A stretch of 64,000 bases of DNA from an uncultured Chloroflexia bacterium (GTDB lineage: Bacteria > Chloroflexota > UBA6077 > JACCZL01). Below, in pieces: positions 1 through 13,010 of this stretch (its first letter is position 1; each line of letters starts with the position of its first letter). The DNA is taken from assembly GCA_963765765.1 (NCBI GenBank), contig CAVXYC010000001.1, positions 32,001 through 96,000 of the forward strand. Reading direction: 5' to 3'. A model generated the notes under the pieces. It had not been told where the DNA came from. It did not search any database and saw only the letters and a list, made by a program, of their open reading frames with translations. Position numbers and translations under genes: made by a program.

Positions 1-113
1 TCGAGCGCACCGTTCAGGTCCTCCTGAAGTACCAGAGCATCATGGTCGTAGAGCTCCTCGGTGACGCTCACGATCAGGACTCGTCCAACCTTGATGATCG
101 GGACTCGTGCCAT
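1..113 (-). CDS. rsbS: RsbS-like STAS anti-anti-sigma/stressosome subunit (5' part only, runs off the window)
   Basis: Hand translation from ATG at 113: MARVPIIKVGRVLIVSVTEELYDHDALVLQEDLNGALE, matching the RsbS N-terminus (xPILKxGxxLIVSIQxELxDxxAxxLQEDL). GAGGA RBS upstream. Absent from the ORF track because there is no stop in the window. Confidence 0.85.
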   Translation of the reverse strand, partial: MARVPIIKVGRVLIVSVTEELYDHDALVLQEDLNGAL

Positions 114-599
114 TAAATCGTCCTCGGTGTCGTTTTCCAGCCGGGTCCTGGACGCGCGCCGATTCTTCACTTCGAAGCCCAGACGATCAAACGCCAGCTC
201 TAGGCCCTTGGCCATCGTGACTCGTGTCGTCACGCCCGAGAGATCCAGTCCGAGGTGCACGAGTGTCAGCGCCGTATGTGTGGAGACGCCGACAATGAGC
301 ACCTCTGCGCCCAGCAGCCGAGATGCTGCTACCGTCTCCAGCAGGTGTTTGGCTACCGCGGTATCAATGACCGGTACGGCGGTGATGTCCATGATGACGA
401 TCTCCGAACCCGTGGCCACGATCTTGTCGAGAAGCGCCTCATTCATCTCCTGTGTTCGAGCGGTATCCAGGCTTCCGACAATTGGGAGTGCCAGGATGCC
501 TTCCCAGACCTGGATGACCGGAGTCTGGAGCTCGCGAATCGTTCGCCTCTGCTCCTCGATTTGCCTTTGGATGCCTGTGCTGTCGCCGCCACTCACCAC
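114..599 (-). CDS. rsbR: RsbR-like STAS stressosome subunit lacking an N-terminal sensor domain
   Basis: Hand translation: VVSGGDSTGIQRQIEEQRRTIRELQTPVIQVWEGILALPIVGSLDTARTQ...IMDITAVPVIDTAVAKHLL...LGAEVLIVGVS...LVHLGLDL, with both RsbT-phosphorylated DT motifs. As sequenced it reads in frame into rsbS. Confidence 0.88.
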
Positions 600-602
600 C
601 GC

Positions 603-1697
603 TTACTCCTTCGCACCACTTCCCTCAATGGGTATCCAGACGCGCAACGTGGTTCCTCGCCCCGGCTCACTCTCAATGTCGATGCGCCCCTGATGCGCCT
701 CAACGAGGTTCTTGACAAGGGATAAGCCCAGACCGAGACCACGGATCTCCATTTTGCGAGCCTCTGGTGCCCGATAGAATTTATCGAAGATCCGATCCTG
801 AACATCTGCCGACATCCCGATACCGGTGTCGGAGACCTCAGCCCAGGCGAGGTTCTGCTCGCATCCGGAGCGGACCTTGACACTGCCGCCCGGAGGCGTA
901 TACCGCACGGCATTCGATAGGAGATTGCCAAAGGTACTGAGCAGAGCATCCTCATTGCCCCACACCATGACCTGCTGGGGCGCGGGCTCGAAGTGAATGG
1001 CGACCTCGTCTTCTGCGCCACCCACAGCGGCCCAATCACACGCTTGCTGCAGAATGCTCGTGAGGTCCTGCGGACCCAGCACCAGCTCCGGCGATTCATC
1101 GCGACTGGCTTCCACCAGGTCCGCGCTCAGCCGCGAGAGGCGATCCATCGCTCGACGCGCCGCTTCCAGCAGCCCGCTTGCGCCCTCGGTCTCGCCCCGC
1201 GTCAACATGCGGCGCGCCAGATCGAGATTGCCGCGGGCCGCCGTGAGCGGCGTTCGCAGTTCGTGTGCGATCACCGCCAGCAGCTCGTCCTTCTGATGAC
1301 CCAGCCGCTCAACGTCTAGTACGCGTTGATGCTGCTCCTCGGCTTGAACATCGGCATCCTGCATGCTCTCTTTCAAGCGCAGCTCGAGGAACTCCTTAAA
1401 GTGCACGCCATACGCGATCATGATCTCCAATAAGAACTGCTGGGCATCGATCTCGGCCCGTGCGCGGTCACGATAGGTCTTACCTGACAGTACGCGATCG
1501 AAGCTCTCGAAATGGAGTGCAATGATGTCCTCGGGGCCGAGGCCGCCATCGATGAACTCCTGGCTCAGCAGCGACACCCGATAGAGATCTTCCTCACTAC
1601 GAGTTTGAAGATACGTGGCGAGGATCTGTTCGTACGCGTCTGGCCCGCCTAAGGACTCGCTTCTCTCGCTGGCATTCTCGAAGTGATCCGTTGTCAT
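603..1697 (-). CDS. Histidine kinase with N-terminal RsbU_N domain (RsbU_N-HisKA-HATPase_c)
   Basis: H box AHELRTPL; N box NLLSNAVRYT; G1 DTGIG; F box IFDKFYR; G2 GLGLGL. The N-terminus YEQILATYL..SEEDLY...GPEDIIALH...FLLEIMIAYG resembles B. subtilis RsbU residues 1-90. Confidence 0.9.
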   Translation of the reverse strand: MTTDHFENASERSESLGGPDAYEQILATYLQTRSEEDLYRVSLLSQEFIDGGLGPEDIIALHFESFDRVLSGKTYRDRARAEIDAQQFLLEIMIAYGVHFKEFLELRLKESMQDADVQAEEQHQRVLDVERLGHQKDELLAVIAHELRTPLTAARGNLDLARRMLTRGETEGASGLLEAARRAMDRLSRLSADLVEASRDESPELVLGPQDLTSILQQACDWAAVGGAEDEVAIHFEPAPQQVMVWGNEDALLSTFGNLLSNAVRYTPPGGSVKVRSGCEQNLAWAEVSDTGIGMSADVQDRIFDKFYRAPEARKMEIRGLGLGLSLVKNLVEAHQGRIDIESEPGRGTTLRVWIPIEGSGAKE

Positions 1698-2566: not shown

Positions 2567-4390
2567 TTGGCTAACTATGTCCGGCTTCTCCTGCTGACCG
2601 TCCTGCTCGTAGGGTGCTCAGCGGGCCCCGCCACCATGACCTCATCAAACGATAACGAGGATAGCGTTGTCTCGGAGCTGCATCAGCGGTCTGATCGCAC
2701 GGAGGATCTGCATTGGCTTCGGTCCATGGCTGGAGACCATCCATGGTTCGCCGAAGGCAACAGTCGATCAAGCGTCATCGAGGAAAAGTACCGCGCTTTC
2801 AATAGCGGCGATCGTGCCCGAATTGCGCGCATGAACGCGGTGCTCTCCGCCGAAGCTCAGACACGGGCCAGCCTCGTGTTGACCCGCTGGATGAGTCAGC
2901 TTGATCCCGAGAACGGCCTCCTACCCAAGGGCCGGGCTTCAGAAGACCGAGTCTGGGATTATGCCGATACCAGCGCAGATCTTTTTCCGCATCTGCTCAT
3001 CGCGGCCACACTGATTGACCCCAACAGCGCCGCGGCACTTACAAGGATCATCGCCACCGAACGTGCGATGTCGAGCGCCCTGGGGCTGCCCGAGAATATC
3101 GACCTGAAGACAGACAAACCGGTCAAGCAAGATCTGGAAGATCGTATCTACGGCTCGGTGGAGTACGCCAAGGATGGGCTTCTGCCGCTTCTGGAGCGAC
3201 TGGGCCCCGGGCCATGGTCAGACCGATTGCTGGATATCGCACGGCGCGTGGACGCCGCGGGAGTTGAGACCACTCGCTTTGGCAGCATTCCATCCGATTC
3301 AAGCGAGGTGAATGGCCAGGCACTGCAAGTGCTGACGCGCGCATACTGGCTCACCGGGGATGAGCAGTTCACACGCAGCGGTGCGCGTATAAGCCGCGCC
3401 TACCTTGACCTTGCATTGCCCTCTACAGGAATGATCCCCGGTCGCACCTGGGATTTCCGTCGAGAGACGGCGAATACGCAACACGCACAGCTTCGAGACC
3501 ACGGTAATGAGGTTGTGGCCGGCCTGGTGGAGTTTCACTTGATCGAGTCTACCCTGGGGATGCCCGAGATTCAGGAGCGGCGCCAGGACATTCGAGACAT
3601 GCTCGGAGCGCTGTTGAGGCTGGGCCGTACGGACGTTGGGCTCTGGAAGAGCGCCATCGATTTCCAGACTGGCGAGGCGCTCAAGGACACCATCTCGGAC
3701 AATTGGGGCTATCTGTTTTCCGCCTATCTCACTCAGGCGATGATTGAGGAACGATTTCCCGGTGGTGACCTTGAGCTTGCAGCCACCTATCGGGCTGCCA
3801 CCAAGCGCGGGCTCAATGCCGCGGCGAACCTCGACTTCTATCCCTGGCAGGGCATCGAGCAGGATGGCTATGCCGATACCATCGAGAGCGCGCTGTATCT
3901 CATCGACCAGATGGCTGCGCCACGCGCTGAACGTTGGATTGATCGTCAGGCGGGAACGCTTTTTGGCGCACAGGATGCCACCGGTCGAGTGGAAGACCGG
4001 TACCTTGACGGTAACTTTGTTCGAACCGCGCTGCTCTATTCGGGCTGGCAGAGCCAGGGCGTGCGGGCGGATCCGTGGGAGCCAGGAGTCCTACTGGGCG
4101 CCGTGCCCGATGGCGATTGCGTGCAGCTTGCGCTCGGCTCGGGGCATCAGTGGGATGGGCGGATTGTCTTTGATGCACCCCGCCATCGGACCATCCTCAA
4201 TCTTCCCATGTCGTACCCACGCCTGAACGGCTGGCCTGAGTGGTTTACCGCGGAGACGGATAGCGTCTACCGTGCGAGCGATCTCAGTGCTGGTACAGCG
4301 CGAGAGATGACTGGCGCGGAGCTTCTCAGCGGGGTTCCAATGCAGCTTGAGCCCGGCTCAGAGCGAGACTGGCGCGTTTGCCCAGCCTGA
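2567..4390 (+). CDS. Uncharacterised lipoprotein, probable (alpha/alpha)6 six-hairpin glycosidase-like fold
   Basis: 607 aa with lipobox LVGC; aromatic/acidic helical motifs (DSSEVNGQ, AYWLTGD, LRDHGNE, DNWGY, DGYADTIES, DGNFVRT). Confidence 0.6.
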   Translation: MANYVRLLLLTVLLVGCSAGPATMTSSNDNEDSVVSELHQRSDRTEDLHWLRSMAGDHPWFAEGNSRSSVIEEKYRAFNSGDRARIARMNAVLSAEAQTRASLVLTRWMSQLDPENGLLPKGRASEDRVWDYADTSADLFPHLLIAATLIDPNSAAALTRIIATERAMSSALGLPENIDLKTDKPVKQDLEDRIYGSVEYAKDGLLPLLERLGPGPWSDRLLDIARRVDAAGVETTRFGSIPSDSSEVNGQALQVLTRAYWLTGDEQFTRSGARISRAYLDLALPSTGMIPGRTWDFRRETANTQHAQLRDHGNEVVAGLVEFHLIESTLGMPEIQERRQDIRDMLGALLRLGRTDVGLWKSAIDFQTGEALKDTISDNWGYLFSAYLTQAMIEERFPGGDLELAATYRAATKRGLNAAANLDFYPWQGIEQDGYADTIESALYLIDQMAAPRAERWIDRQAGTLFGAQDATGRVEDRYLDGNFVRTALLYSGWQSQGVRADPWEPGVLLGAVPDGDCVQLALGSGHQWDGRIVFDAPRHRTILNLPMSYPRLNGWPEWFTAETDSVYRASDLSAGTAREMTGAELLSGVPMQLEPGSERDWRVCPA

Positions 4391-10852: not shown

Positions 10853-13010
10853 TCACCGCGGTGAAGTAGATAATGAATCGCCAGCCGCGTGAGTGACGAT
10901 TCCAAGCTGGTGAGCTTTGTGAGCAGCCTCGGCGCGCGTGGCGCAGTTGAGCTTGCTGAGAACGTTGCTCACGTACATCTCCACAGTACGGGGACTGAGC
11001 ATGAGCAGCTCGGCAATCTCCTTACTGGTGTGCCCCTGGCACACTGAGCTAAGCACCTCGAGCTCGCGCGGTGACAGACCGCCGCGCTCCAGGAAGCGCG
11101 CCGCTCGTCGACCTAACCTTTTGTCCACCGTTTCACCTAGCTCGCTGAGCTCGTGAGCAGCTTCCAATGCGAGAGGACGGGCGCCAAGCTTTTGAGCGGT
11201 GCGGTATGCATCGGTCAGCAATCCAATTGCAGACGGCGTATCTCCCAGCTTGGCCCGGGCGACGCCTGCTCTGAGCTGGACGCGGGCGCGCTCATAGGGC
11301 ACTTCAAGCGGCGCCAGCAGAGAGAGGGATCGATCGAAGTGCTCCACAGCTTGCTGAACGTTGGCCATTAATAGCGCCGACTCCGCCAGAGCCGTCGCCG
11401 CTCCCGCAAGGGCTTCCGCATTGCCCGTTTCAGCGGCGATGGCTGAAAGGATCCGTGCGCACGTCCGGGCTTCGGCCTCCATGCCAGCGCGGGCAAAAAA
11501 CGTCGCCGCGTCCCCGAGAGGCGATACCACGTAGTGGCGATCCTCCGTGCGATTCCAATGCTCCAGGATGAAGCGATAGCGCTCCGCAGTTTCGGGGCGG
11601 CCTTCCTGCTCATCGAGCATCGCCAGATTCCACGCGCTGTCGATCACCAGTGCAGCGATCCCTATCTCCTTCGATCGCTCATGCGCTTCACTCAACAGGG
11701 CACGTGCTCGCGTACGCTCGCCACGTAGAACCTGAAATGAGCCGAGCATGCCTGTGGCAATGACTCGAGCGGCCGTGGGTGCGCCGTCGTCATCGATGAC
11801 CGCACGGCATATCTCGGTGCCGCGATCCCACTCGCCAGTCTGACGCAGCACCACGGCCAGGCAGCCCAGACACACGAGCTGCATCACGGGCGCATCGTTA
11901 GTCTGGCAGAAGGAGATTGCCTCCCCGTAGGCATTCCTCGTTGCAGCGTAATCGGTCGACAGGCTCATCGCGTTTGCAAGGCGGTAGTAAGCGTCTGCCG
12001 CAACTTCAACCAGGTTCGCTTCCAGCGCCGATCCGAGCCCCCGTCGGATCATGTCTAGACCGGCTTCCACTTCACCTCGATCTGCCCGTAGCTGACCTTC
12101 CAGCGCCAGTGCGCGGGATTCGATGTCCGGCCGCTGTCTTTCTCTGGCGATGTCCTGGAGGCCGTGGAGTGCCGCAAGGCCATCAGCGAATCGGCCCATG
12201 CCCTCCAGGTGCTCTGCCAACGCGAGGCGCTCGGCCGCGGCTTCCTCAACTGCGTTGCAGGCCTCGAAGGCCTGTCGCGCCGCCTGTCGCGCCTCCACCG
12301 CGGCACCGCCGTCACCCTGCATTTCAAAAAGGCCCGCGAGGTTGCGTTGCACTCGTGCCAGCGAGGGCCAGTCTTTGCGAAATCGATAAAGCTCCGATGA
12401 CTCACGCCAGGAGCGCGCCGCCTCCGCGGCGTTGCCGCTGGCGAAAGAGCATTCCGCGTATCGCTCCAAGACAGTTATTCGCTCGATATCGGCCGTATCC
12501 CGAGGCCATAAATCCAGCGATTTGCGAGCACTCTCCGCCGCGTCTCGATAGGCATGTTGCGCACACGCTTCATCGGCGGCTTTGAGAAAGCTGGAGCGTG
12601 CGGAATCACGTCTGTTGGCCGCTAGCCAATGCTGCGCGATCTCAGTCGCGGGTGCTCCGCCTGAATGAAGAAGCTCCGCGATCTGGCAGTGAATTGCGCG
12701 CCGCTGGGTTCTACTAAGCGTTCGATAGACGCATTCCTGCACCAGGGCGTGTCGAAACATCGCGCGACCATCGCCAGCTTCTCGAATGATTCCCGTATCC
12801 AGCGCGTCGTCAATCGCCTCGGGAGCAGCGACTAATTCGGTCACGACGTCGAGATCAAACGACGGGCCGGCAACTGCCGCGACGTCCAGCGCGGCGCGCG
12901 TGGCGCTGGAGAGCGCTGACAACCGAAGGAGCACCGCCTCGTGAATAGTTGTTGGAATTGTGCCACTGGTTGGTTCGAACTGGGAATCTCGGAGCGACTC
13001 ACTCAGTGCC
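10853..13010 (-). pseudogene. MalT/LuxR-family large ATP-dependent regulator, N-terminal NTPase domain missing
   Basis: IPTTIHEAVLLRL, FRHALVQE, TPR-like region, C-terminal LuxR HTH (LSPRELEVL...LSPRTVEMYVSNVLSKL). Homology stops near 13010, where the SIR2 sequence begins. Confidence 0.85.

Follow-up and report, generated by a model that had tools for sequence, protein, structure and literature searches.

A six-gene stressosome operon of an uncultured Chloroflexota bacterium with a histidine kinase as its probable output

The window (the whole stretch of 64,000 nucleotides that was analysed, from a contig of an uncultured Chloroflexia bacterium of soil) was found to contain at its left edge the first genes of an operon with the order HK-rsbR-rsbS-rsbT-rsbT2-rsbX, where HK is the histidine kinase gene. 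The genes rsbT, its paralogue rsbT2 (T2) and the PP2C gene rsbX were found directly downstream in this operon, left of the window. The window contained the following features of the operon.

603..1697, minus strand: soluble histidine kinase, RsbU_N - helical linker - HisKA - HATPase_c (ORF and Pfam)
1404..1637, minus strand: RsbU_N, aa 21-98, predicted RsbT docking/dimerisation module (Pfam PF08673)
1296..1403, minus strand: helical linker, aa 99-134, from RsbU_N helix 4 to the DHp helix (AlphaFold2 model)
1092..1295, minus strand: HisKA (DHp), aa 135-202, with predicted phospho-acceptor H145 (Pfam PF00512, 49.6 bits)
624..959, minus strand: HATPase_c catalytic domain, aa 247-358 (Pfam PF02518, 96.8 bits)
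114..599, minus strand: rsbR, short form with linker helix and STAS only, ~160 aa (Pfam STAS)
1..113, minus strand: 5' part of rsbS, ATG at 113-111, running off the left edge to G000:C1:31724 (second STAS domain)

The rsbR end at 114 is the stop that appears once an extra base of a T run is removed; as assembled, the frame enters rsbS and the two genes form one ORF of 291 aa with two STAS domains. The kinase stop codon TAA was followed by GCG and then by the GTG start of rsbR (STAS), leaving a 3-nt gap, and the ATG of rsbS was preceded by GAGGA at 7 nt. An earlier note on this DNA had placed the kinase 3 nt from rsbR, followed by rsbS; the spacing and the order stood, and the separate rsbR and rsbS reading frames did not in this assembly. 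It had also pointed to the left of the window, where rsbT and rsbX were indeed present and the response regulator sought there was not, none being found within ~70 kb of the operon (the nearest REC ORF on the contig was at C1:104097). No RNA element was found by an Rfam search of L007 9500-14000 (E up to 0.1) and no terminator by a terminator scan. The promoter scan gave a single promoter-like site, ~190 nt before the kinase gene, a number that shuffled sequences give as well.

The 364-aa kinase was found by Pfam to contain RsbU_N, HisKA and HATPase_c domains. The RsbU_N match (PF08673, E 7.4e-16) spanned positions 2-74 of the 75-position profile and scored 58.5 bits, the cut-off being 25.5, and a six-frame search of the genome found the same domain at C1:33404-33637 with 61.8 bits. 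The highest 19-residue Kyte-Doolittle mean was 1.12, so that no membrane segment is expected; the ORF, the Pfam domains and this profile bear out the soluble RsbU_N-HisKA-HATPase kinase of 364 aa described in the earlier note. No PP2C domain was found in the kinase by Pfam, and it is therefore not an RsbU. The three-domain architecture was common to 119 of the 120 best kinase homologues. The residues H145 (in HELRTP) with E146, N258/N262, D290-G292-G294 and G320-G324 were found to be invariant in 20 kinase sequences, with F304/F307 invariant or nearly so, and these are assigned to the H, N, G1, F and G2 boxes. By its H-box and HATPase_c boxes the protein is predicted to be a histidine kinase of the HisKA class. 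The closest solved relatives of its HATPase_c domain were the HK853-type kinases 4JAS and 3DGE (~E 1e-27). The AlphaFold2 model contained helices at aa 19-32, 35-51, 55-69 and 75-166, the last being a single unbroken helix (mean pLDDT 77.6, linker blocks 64-77), and in 19 of the 20 homologues FLLE and the H-box lay 57 residues apart.

By phmmer, aa 21-108 of the kinase were aligned with the B. subtilis RsbU N-domain structures 2J6Y, 2J6Z, 2J70 and 1W53 (E 2e-6 to 2e-5), and the alignment contained exactly the RsbU motifs that had been matched by eye before. The RsbU residues E24, Y28, I74 and I78 are implicated in RsbT binding in PMC12143880. They were found to correspond to E35, Y39, L90 and I94 of the kinase (alignment to 2J6Y/2J6Z/2J70), in agreement with the E, Y, L and I given in the earlier note, and all four were invariant in 20 homologues. 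The RsbT residues R19 and R23, named in the same paper, were invariant in 29 Chloroflexota RsbT orthologues, their numbering against B. subtilis RsbT being a by-eye reading of a printed Geomicrobium RsbT start beside the L016 sequence.

The complex of RsbT with the kinase was modelled, as the earlier note had suggested, with an orthologous pair from locus L016 in place of the proteins of the window genome, as two copies of HK(1-125) and one of RsbT. The model scored 0.67, 0.67 and 0.66, against 0.00 for the best of three controls; of 80 solved complexes 58 score this high, as do 2 of 110 mismatched pairs, a rough calibration (own alignments, L016 pair). The runs shared at least 92% of contacts, with a partner pLDDT of at least 79. 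The modelled interface contained positions 24, 28, 79 and 83 of the L016 kinase (equivalent to E35, Y39, L90 and I94 of the window kinase) and positions 19 and 23 of RsbT, with most of the contacts coming from the RsbT helix D35-Q36-S37-R38...T41. The L016 model thus supports the predicted docking of RsbT on an RsbU_N dimer.

RsbR was found to match V. vulnificus RsbR 7O0I_B best (residues 163-298, E 8.6e-28), a chain deposited as 'Anti-anti-sigma factor' in what we take to be the V. vulnificus stressosome. It also matched residues 141-269 of the 278-aa RsbR chains 7B0U and 9O4R (7B0U_A, E 3.8e-25), and its best NCBIfam match was to the YtvA family, in the C-terminal part. RsbR is predicted to have a C-terminal STAS domain of the RsbR type without N-terminal sensor; its length was 150-197 aa in 30 HK-first loci. 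Rsbr_N was sought across the genome and gave no match, and the two RsbRD_N matches found were not beside STAS. RsbS matched 6QCM_A, 6JHK_A and 2VY9_A with E-values of 2.5e-27 to 2.1e-25, the last for 2VY9_A, which was deposited as an anti-sigma-factor antagonist (STAS) domain protein and is presumably the RsbS of M. thermoacetica. RsbS keeps a Ser at the position where 9O4R_a has Ala and is a single STAS domain with a predicted phosphorylatable Ser; in the alignment to solved stressosome RsbR/RsbS the phospho-sites of both proteins were conserved. The rsbT product matched HATPase_c_2, its ATP-binding motifs were invariant in 29 orthologues, and a Bacillales RsbT nested inside the T clade of the tree, so that it is predicted to be a small GHKL serine kinase orthologous to Bacillus RsbT. 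The rsbX product matched SpoIIE with 50 bits, was ~200 aa long in relatives and is a predicted single-domain PP2C feedback phosphatase. The earlier note had let its proposal fall with a missing RsbU_N or a missing rsbT; the RsbU_N matches to profile and structure sequences were significant and rsbT was found in the operon.

The kinase gene was directly followed by rsbR in 32 of 39 Chloroflexota loci. All six genes were found in the order HK-R-S-T-T2-X, overlapping or near-abutting, in 25 of the 39, and these complete copies come from Chloroflexota metagenome-assembled genomes. Two Anaerolineae-type loci (L048 and L051) contained the order R(RsbRD_N-STAS)-S-T-T2-X-HK-REC, with the kinase in the classical downstream position. 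All-against-all ORF clustering of 40 loci found no conserved neighbours outside the six genes (the largest non-operon cluster covered 8 loci). The kinase was patchy among relatives, being present in 6 of 30 same-order genomes and 0 of 1 same-genus genome, and no intact rsbT was found in closer relatives among the 30 same-order genomes (top kinase identity 54%). This patchiness, the frame breaks in the assembly, the lack of an adjacent response regulator and the failure to show an RsbT interaction of the V. vulnificus downstream kinase, which has no RsbU_N (PMC9237108), count against reading the kinase as an RsbT target.

In RsbU the RsbU_N domain serves for dimerisation (PMC12143880), and in the window kinase it might do only that, leaving the kinase free of RsbT control and in the operon by acting on the stressosome or its expression, or by co-regulation. 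The kinase stands first in the operon, whereas the published modules have it downstream of rsbX, and the RsbR without its sensor domain would need some other input. We regard this reading as very unlikely, however, as the RsbT-binding surface residues were invariant and not the core residues alone, the L016 pair gave a confident complex model against the three controls, and the two Anaerolineae-type loci place the same kinase family downstream, followed by a receiver.

The single rsbR-rsbS ORF was found to arise because TTA replaces, at the rsbR end, the stop present in 30 of 30 relatives, and rsbT and rsbX were each broken by a one-base indel in the assembly. Each anomaly was compared with the two sequencing runs whose contigs cover it, from related soil strains 90-99% alike (in the run search the best sampled-word shares were 0.18 or lower, none reaching half). 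Both covering runs contained one base fewer at L007 10463 and 11445, and at 12115 one run was without one base and the other with an 8-base insert. All three indels were in or beside short single-base runs, and removing three bases restored RsbR, RsbS, RsbT and RsbX frames of normal length. In the essential rpoB of the same assembly an internal part, profile positions 599-724, was found in a different frame, so that indel errors do occur in this assembly. From these comparisons, one-base assembly errors most likely account for the apparent fusion of RsbR with RsbS and for the frameshifts in rsbT and rsbX.

A natural RsbR-RsbS fusion was also considered and is probably an assembly artefact, in view of the relatives' stop and of the two covering runs that differ there. 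If the indels were real, the module would be decaying, a remnant with rsbT and rsbX as pseudogenes, rsbR fused to rsbS and a paralogous kinase broken by an IS element. Three frame anomalies in 3.6 kb, the split of the kinase paralogue on C32 by a DDE transposase gene and the missing kinase in most close relatives fit such decay, but it is highly improbable given that both covering runs depart from the assembly at each of the three places, that the frames are restored by dropping bases in or next to single-base runs and that rpoB is frame-broken as well. A metatranscriptome contig (X1, 1,076 nt) from a ~95% similar strain was found to connect the 3' end of the kinase gene with rsbR and rsbS; it is not counted as proof of transcription because of possible DNA carry-over.

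The second RsbT paralogue, T2, was missing from one (L042) of the 26 HK-first loci that extend beyond rsbT and present in the other 25, as well as in the two HK-last loci. The GHKL ATP-binding motifs are retained in T2, and in the tree it formed a separate 100/100 clade with a long stem, which suggests a new function; a PDB search with T2 (E up to 0.01) gave no matches. An Arg at the equivalent of RsbT R19 was at least 90% conserved in T2, and Arg was mostly found at the R23 equivalent, so that the kinase could have T2 as its partner in place of RsbT or alongside it. It may thus be that T2, not RsbT, docks on the kinase RsbU_N, or that both compete, one activating and one blocking, with RsbT only phosphorylating the STAS scaffold. 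The retention of T2, its motifs, its arginines and its long stem would agree with this reading, which we nevertheless consider unlikely, since the main modelled contact helix (D35-Q36-S37-R38...T41) was invariant or nearly so in T and not conserved in T2, and the Bacillales RsbT groups with T.

The genome (92% complete) was found to contain only three STAS domains, those of RsbR, RsbS and one short RsbR paralogue. No small HATPase_c_2 kinase was found in the genome except T and T2, and rsbX alone was above the cut-off in the SpoIIE/PP2C search, with no RsbU_N-PP2C protein. The three RsbU_N domains of the genome were all kinase-type or stand-alone. No partner-switching module of the RsbV/RsbW type was found in the 92%-complete genome, and the bypass of RsbV/RsbW/sigma-B that the earlier note had proposed holds to this extent.

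Histidine kinases with RsbU_N in proteobacterial stressosome operons have been proposed as RsbT targets (PMC9237108 and PMC12143880); Baral et al. 2025 model an RsbU_N-kinase dimer (PMC12143880), and downstream of proteobacterial rsbRSTX modules Heinz et al. 2022 (PMC9237108) describe RsbU_N signalling proteins that include HisKA/REC phosphorelays. A stressosome that drives a histidine kinase through RsbU_N is thus an already published hypothesis and the locus opens no new concept; what differs here is the six-gene order, the STAS-core RsbR, the extra RsbT paralogue and the lack of an adjacent response regulator. The Chloroflexota module shares with the proteobacterial modules the stressosome genes and the RsbU_N kinase, and L048 and L051 have exactly the proteobacterial-type order. 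In those modules the kinase lies downstream of rsbX and RsbR is globin-coupled; in Chloroflexota the kinase comes first in 32 of 39 loci, RsbR has STAS alone, a second RsbT is added, and the window genome has no receiver beside the kinase.

As in B. subtilis, homologues of RsbR, RsbS, RsbT and RsbX share an operon, and RsbU_N, with the same RsbT-contact equivalents, is joined through a helical linker to an effector that is dimeric, as in the RsbT-RsbU pair. The Chloroflexota effector is, however, a HisKA/HATPase_c kinase and not a PP2C phosphatase, the genome search found no RsbV, RsbW or RsbU-type phosphatase, RsbR has no N-terminal domain and an RsbT paralogue is added. Moorella thermoacetica contains MtR, MtS, MtT and MtX with MtG (RsbU_N-GAF-GGDEF; Quin et al. 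2012 as cited in PMC12143880); the combination of RsbU_N and RsbT with a non-phosphatase effector, experimentally supported in Moorella, is shared, whereas the Moorella output is a diguanylate cyclase and not a histidine kinase. The Vibrio vulnificus stressosome locus likewise contains two-component genes (VvD1/VvD2) instead of a sigma factor, but VvD1 is without RsbU_N and its interaction with RsbT could not be demonstrated according to PMC9237108, whereas the Chloroflexota kinase has a clear RsbU_N. A sensor-less sole RsbR and a second fast-evolving RsbT were not found addressed in the literature searched, and Fig. 3 and the supplements of Heinz et al. may list further architectures.

On the domain content, synteny, contact-residue conservation and supportive complex model found here, the six-gene operon is probably a stressosome-type switch with a histidine kinase output through RsbT-RsbU_N docking that bypasses RsbV/RsbW/sigma-B; within this explanation we infer RsbT binding, the sign of regulation, the target and the direct switching of the kinase by RsbT. 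By homology, the STAS-only RsbR and RsbS may assemble into a STAS scaffold, in a stressosome a large pseudo-icosahedral complex, and so keep the serine kinase RsbT sequestered, which would phosphorylate the conserved Thr/Ser of RsbR and RsbS and then be released. The freed RsbT would dock on the kinase, at the four-helix bundle of its dimeric RsbU_N, and may stiffen or re-register the long helix that runs from RsbU_N to DHp, altering H145 autophosphorylation or the kinase/phosphatase balance, and the PP2C phosphatase RsbX would reset the scaffold. The signal would then reach a response regulator whose gene lies elsewhere, probably one that consists of a single receiver domain, without passing through RsbV/RsbW/sigma-B, which are apparently absent from the genome.

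A further, rather doubtful reading is that of a 'headless' stressosome, in which the RsbR-type proteins of this Chloroflexota lineage are only bare STAS cores and no sensing would therefore occur through RsbR turrets. The input would then come through the conserved second kinase T2 or through the RsbU_N kinase, whose gene has shifted to the front of the operon, and the scaffold would be a two-kinase partner-switching buffer or timer before an orphan kinase and a single-domain receiver. The operon raises the questions of how a stressosome functions when its only RsbR has no sensor and what role the second RsbT paralogue has, and the answers would bear on the long-standing issue of stressosome signal perception. 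Being compact, soluble and widely conserved, this six-gene version would allow an in vitro test of the published hypothesis.

No response regulator gene adjoins the kinase that could be the receiver of the proposed 'phosphorelay', and the genome contains 67 REC ORFs. A single-domain REC straight after the kinase was found only in L048, L051 and L038. Two receivers of the genome were picked solely by similarity to receivers adjoining RsbU_N kinases in other genomes: the receiver at C32:206327-206719 was 44% identical to that of L048, and the receiver at C19:378994-379353 was 53-59% identical to those of L026, L038 and L045. These two candidates are no more than a weak lead to the partner of the kinase.

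The kinase was found to be encoded on the minus strand and to contain three domains.

Window 603-1697, minus strand: histidine kinase ORF of 364 aa (ORF and Pfam)
Kinase aa 21-98: RsbU_N (Pfam E 7.4e-16, 58.5 bits, cut-off 25.5)
Kinase aa 135-202: HisKA (Pfam)
Kinase aa 247-358: HATPase_c (Pfam)

The protein was considered soluble because its highest 19-residue hydropathy mean was only 1.12, and the earlier note's description of a soluble 364-aa kinase with an RsbU_N N-terminus followed by HisKA-HATPase was thus borne out. All three domains were present in 119 of the 120 best kinase homologues, the exception being a 267-aa fragment. The TAA stop of the kinase was followed by GCG and then by the GTG start of the STAS gene, which is the 3-nt spacing to rsbR that had been described. 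The N-domain structures 2J6Y, 2J6Z, 2J70 and 1W53 of B. subtilis RsbU matched kinase aa 21-108 (phmmer, E 2e-6 to 2e-5), and the three motif pairs quoted earlier by eye were all contained in the printed alignment. RsbU positions 24, 28, I74 and 78 were aligned with kinase E35, Y39, L90 and I94, the RsbU mutant chains 2J6Y, 2J6Z and 2J70 varying among themselves at positions 24, 28 and 78. The four kinase residues were invariant in the 20 homologues aligned, so the mapping of RsbT contacts to E, Y, L and I in the earlier note was correct. Residues E24, Y28, I74 and I78 of RsbU and R19, R23 and N24 of RsbT are those implicated in binding by Baral et al. 2025 (PMC12143880).

The complex was modelled with the orthologues of a Chloroflexota relative (L016), because rsbT was interrupted in the assembly of this genome; two copies of kinase residues 1-125 were combined with RsbT, with a 29-row alignment per chain. 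The three runs scored 0.67, 0.67 and 0.66, against 0.00 for the best of three controls, with a contact agreement between runs of at least 92% and a partner pLDDT of at least 79. The calibration mark was reached by 58 of 80 solved complexes and by 2 of 110 mismatched pairs, which is only a rough guide with own alignments and a two-copy chain. Confident contacts were predicted at positions 24, 27-28, 79-80 and 83 of the L016 kinase, which include E35, Y39, L90 and I94 in the numbering of the window kinase, and at positions 19-20 and 23 of RsbT, of which R19 and R23 were invariant in 29 orthologues. The predicted interface was the same as the RsbT/RsbU interface described in PMC12143880. [quoted passage not shown] In the AlphaFold2 model of the kinase (mean pLDDT 77.6), a single continuous helix was predicted at aa 75-166, in which the last helix of RsbU_N, the linker and the H145-bearing DHp helix are joined. 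All but one of 20 close homologues had an FLLE-to-H-box spacing of 57 residues, and in a wider set the spacing was off by 4, 11, 14 or 15 residues, differences that are compatible with helical register.

Downstream of the kinase, the minus strand as assembled contained an ORF of 291 aa with two STAS domains. The operon was also found to contain RsbT, a small HATPase_c_2 kinase with its C-terminal third in another frame, T2, a second and intact HATPase_c_2 kinase of 139 aa, and RsbX, a SpoIIE/PP2C protein with its C-terminal part in another frame. The rsbT and rsbX genes sought to the left of the window, which is C1:32001-96000 of the genome, were both found there, co-oriented with the kinase. 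The first STAS part matched the C-terminal halves of the solved RsbR chains 7O0I_B (E 8.6e-28) and 7B0U, and the second matched the RsbS chains 6QCM_A (E 2.5e-27), 6JHK and 2VY9, with retention of the Ser for which 9O4R_a carries an Ala mutation. A low-affinity iron permease gene (L007 9813-10337, plus strand; G000:C1:29813-30337, G000 being this genome; 164.6 bits), converging on the rsbX end, was not conserved there in relatives. At window 2567-4390 (plus strand) a divergent 607-aa ORF had a lipoprotein-like N-terminus, a hydrophobic stretch ending in Cys, and was without a Pfam match at an E limit of 0.01.

A natural RsbR-RsbS fusion was rejected, since the rsbR stop stood directly before or overlapped the rsbS start in 30 of 30 related loci (same frame with one stop between in 14 of 30) and the soil contigs X1 and X2 departed from the assembly at the junction, which here reads GAT TTA ATG. 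Logan contigs from four soil runs with 90-99% similar strains were compared over L007:10100-13700 (L007 is C1:20001-34000). One base fewer was found at L007 10463 (RsbX shift) in X2 and X5, the two covering runs, and at 11445 (RsbT shift) in X1 and X2, followed by one base fewer in X2 and an 8-base insert in X1 at 12115 (R/S junction). All three sites were in or adjoining short single-base runs, and in silico removal of the three bases gave separate stop-to-stop frames for RsbR (162 aa), RsbS (153 aa), RsbT (183 aa) and RsbX (264 aa). The essential rpoB gene (G000:C20:326017-329370) matched its profile in a single long frame, with only positions 599-724 shifted into another one, which points to paired indel errors in the assembly; rpoC was uninterrupted. 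The interrupted frames could also mean that the module is truly decaying in the strain, which is considered very improbable; assembly indels are the most probable source of all three anomalies, with the operon intact and rsbR and rsbS separate genes.

The GHKL motifs were kept in both T and T2, which were clear paralogues (hhalign E 1.5e-46). A 58-row maximum-likelihood tree, whose root is unsure because it was placed on a very long RsbW branch, nested the RsbT of Geomicrobium (L056, a canonical Bacillales operon) inside the T clade and put T2 in a separate clade with 100/100 support and a long stem. From this placement T is, on sequence, the RsbT orthologue and T2 a diverged extra copy.

The GTDB genome scan gave 46 loci, of which 39 (L014-L052) were full-length matches in Chloroflexota metagenome-assembled genomes. 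The kinase was directly followed by rsbR in 32 of the 39, and 25 of these carried the complete six-gene series HK-R-S-T-T2-X, most gaps lying between -4 and +26 nt. Seven of the 32 were partial; four ended soon after at a contig end, L030 contained only the kinase and rsbR despite about 1.2 kb beyond rsbR, and L042 contained the operon without T2. In the last of the seven, L037 (3438-4454, plus strand), T2 and rsbX shared one 338-aa frame. RsbR of the kinase-first loci was 150-197 aa, a STAS domain with a short N-terminal helix. Two loci, L048 (Ardenticatenaceae) and L051 (Anaerolineales), had the order R-S-T-T2-X-HK, with an RsbRD_N-STAS RsbR and a single-domain receiver 7 and 5 nt after the kinase, respectively. 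The kinase stood alone in 5 of 39, two at a contig end and three being paralogues from one genome. No other conserved neighbours beyond the six genes were found across the loci. The kinase had a patchy distribution among close relatives, occurring in 6 of 30 genomes from its order and 2 of 9 from its family and being absent from the one genome of its genus. A second, convergent RsbU_N kinase immediately followed rsbX in L039 (6883-7932, minus strand), and L052 (6980-8575, plus strand) encoded an RsbU_N-PAS-HisKA-HATPase_c kinase.

The genome (91.8% complete) was found to contain three RsbU_N domains (the kinase, a C32 paralogue and a stand-alone protein) and as many STAS domains, those of R and S plus that of a short R paralogue on C15. 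Apart from T and T2 there was no small HATPase_c_2 protein, and apart from rsbX no SpoIIE match above cut-off, so an RsbV/RsbW cascade and an RsbU-type phosphatase were not found, in agreement with the proposed bypass of RsbV/RsbW/sigmaB. The related genes elsewhere were as follows.

L011 5699-8154, minus strand (G000:C32:203699-206154): paralogous RsbU_N-HisKA-HATPase_c kinase, 59-60% identical, broken after the H-box by a 424-aa ORF with a DDE transposase domain
L011 8327-8719: single-domain response regulator gene, divergent beside this paralogue
L012 7113-7769, minus strand (G000:C1:316113-316769): stand-alone RsbU_N protein, 64% identical to kinase aa 14-133; a GAF-LuxR regulator ORF on the opposite strand adjoins it, barely short of overlap
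L013 6458-6997, plus strand (G000:C15:153458-153997): second STAS-only RsbR paralogue, alone, 76% DNA identity to rsbR
L013 4124-4561, minus strand (G000:C15:151124-151561): 146-aa globin gene, about 1.9 kb from this RsbR paralogue, with a weak partial receiver ORF between them

The stand-alone protein kept E35, Y39, L90 and I94 and diverged at the expected place of the H-box; it could be an RsbT decoy or a kinase remnant. The response regulator sought to the left of the window was not found adjoining the operon, and on this contig no receiver ORF lay closer than about 70 kb, which makes the kinase an orphan. Receivers followed the kinase in L048, L051 and L038 and one was divergent to the broken C32 paralogue, which suggests that the target is likely to be a single-domain receiver; two candidate receivers elsewhere in the genome are only a lead.

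Heinz et al. 2022 (PMC9237108) describe rsbRSTX modules with diverse downstream proteins, HisKA/REC phosphorelays among them and some with an RsbU_N-like N-terminus, which in the authors' words 'strongly suggests' stressosome-dependent signalling. PMC12143880 contains an AlphaFold2 dimer of one RsbU_N kinase and the proposal that RsbT binding rigidifies the linker so that effector domains dimerise. The stressosome-to-kinase idea has thus been published before, for kinases as a hypothesis, and the proposed output through this kinase is here supported by computation. Unlike the published RsbU_N-kinase modules, the present one belongs to a new phylum (Chloroflexota), has the kinase first in the operon, has no RsbR type other than the STAS-only one and has a conserved second RsbT paralogue. 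The same restriction to STAS-only RsbR was seen in the relative G011, in which the R and S of the operon were the only two STAS matches. Literature searches found no paper on a Chloroflexi stressosome, on an additional RsbT or on an RsbR that naturally lacks a sensor. A turret-less stressosome with input via T2 or via the kinase itself is conceivable, if rather unlikely. RsbRD_N domains were found at G000:C1:105680-105985 (minus strand) and G000:C32:152112-152330 (plus strand), the ORFs being 404 and 121 aa long with no adjoining STAS, so the domain lost by RsbR here occurs in other settings elsewhere in the genome.
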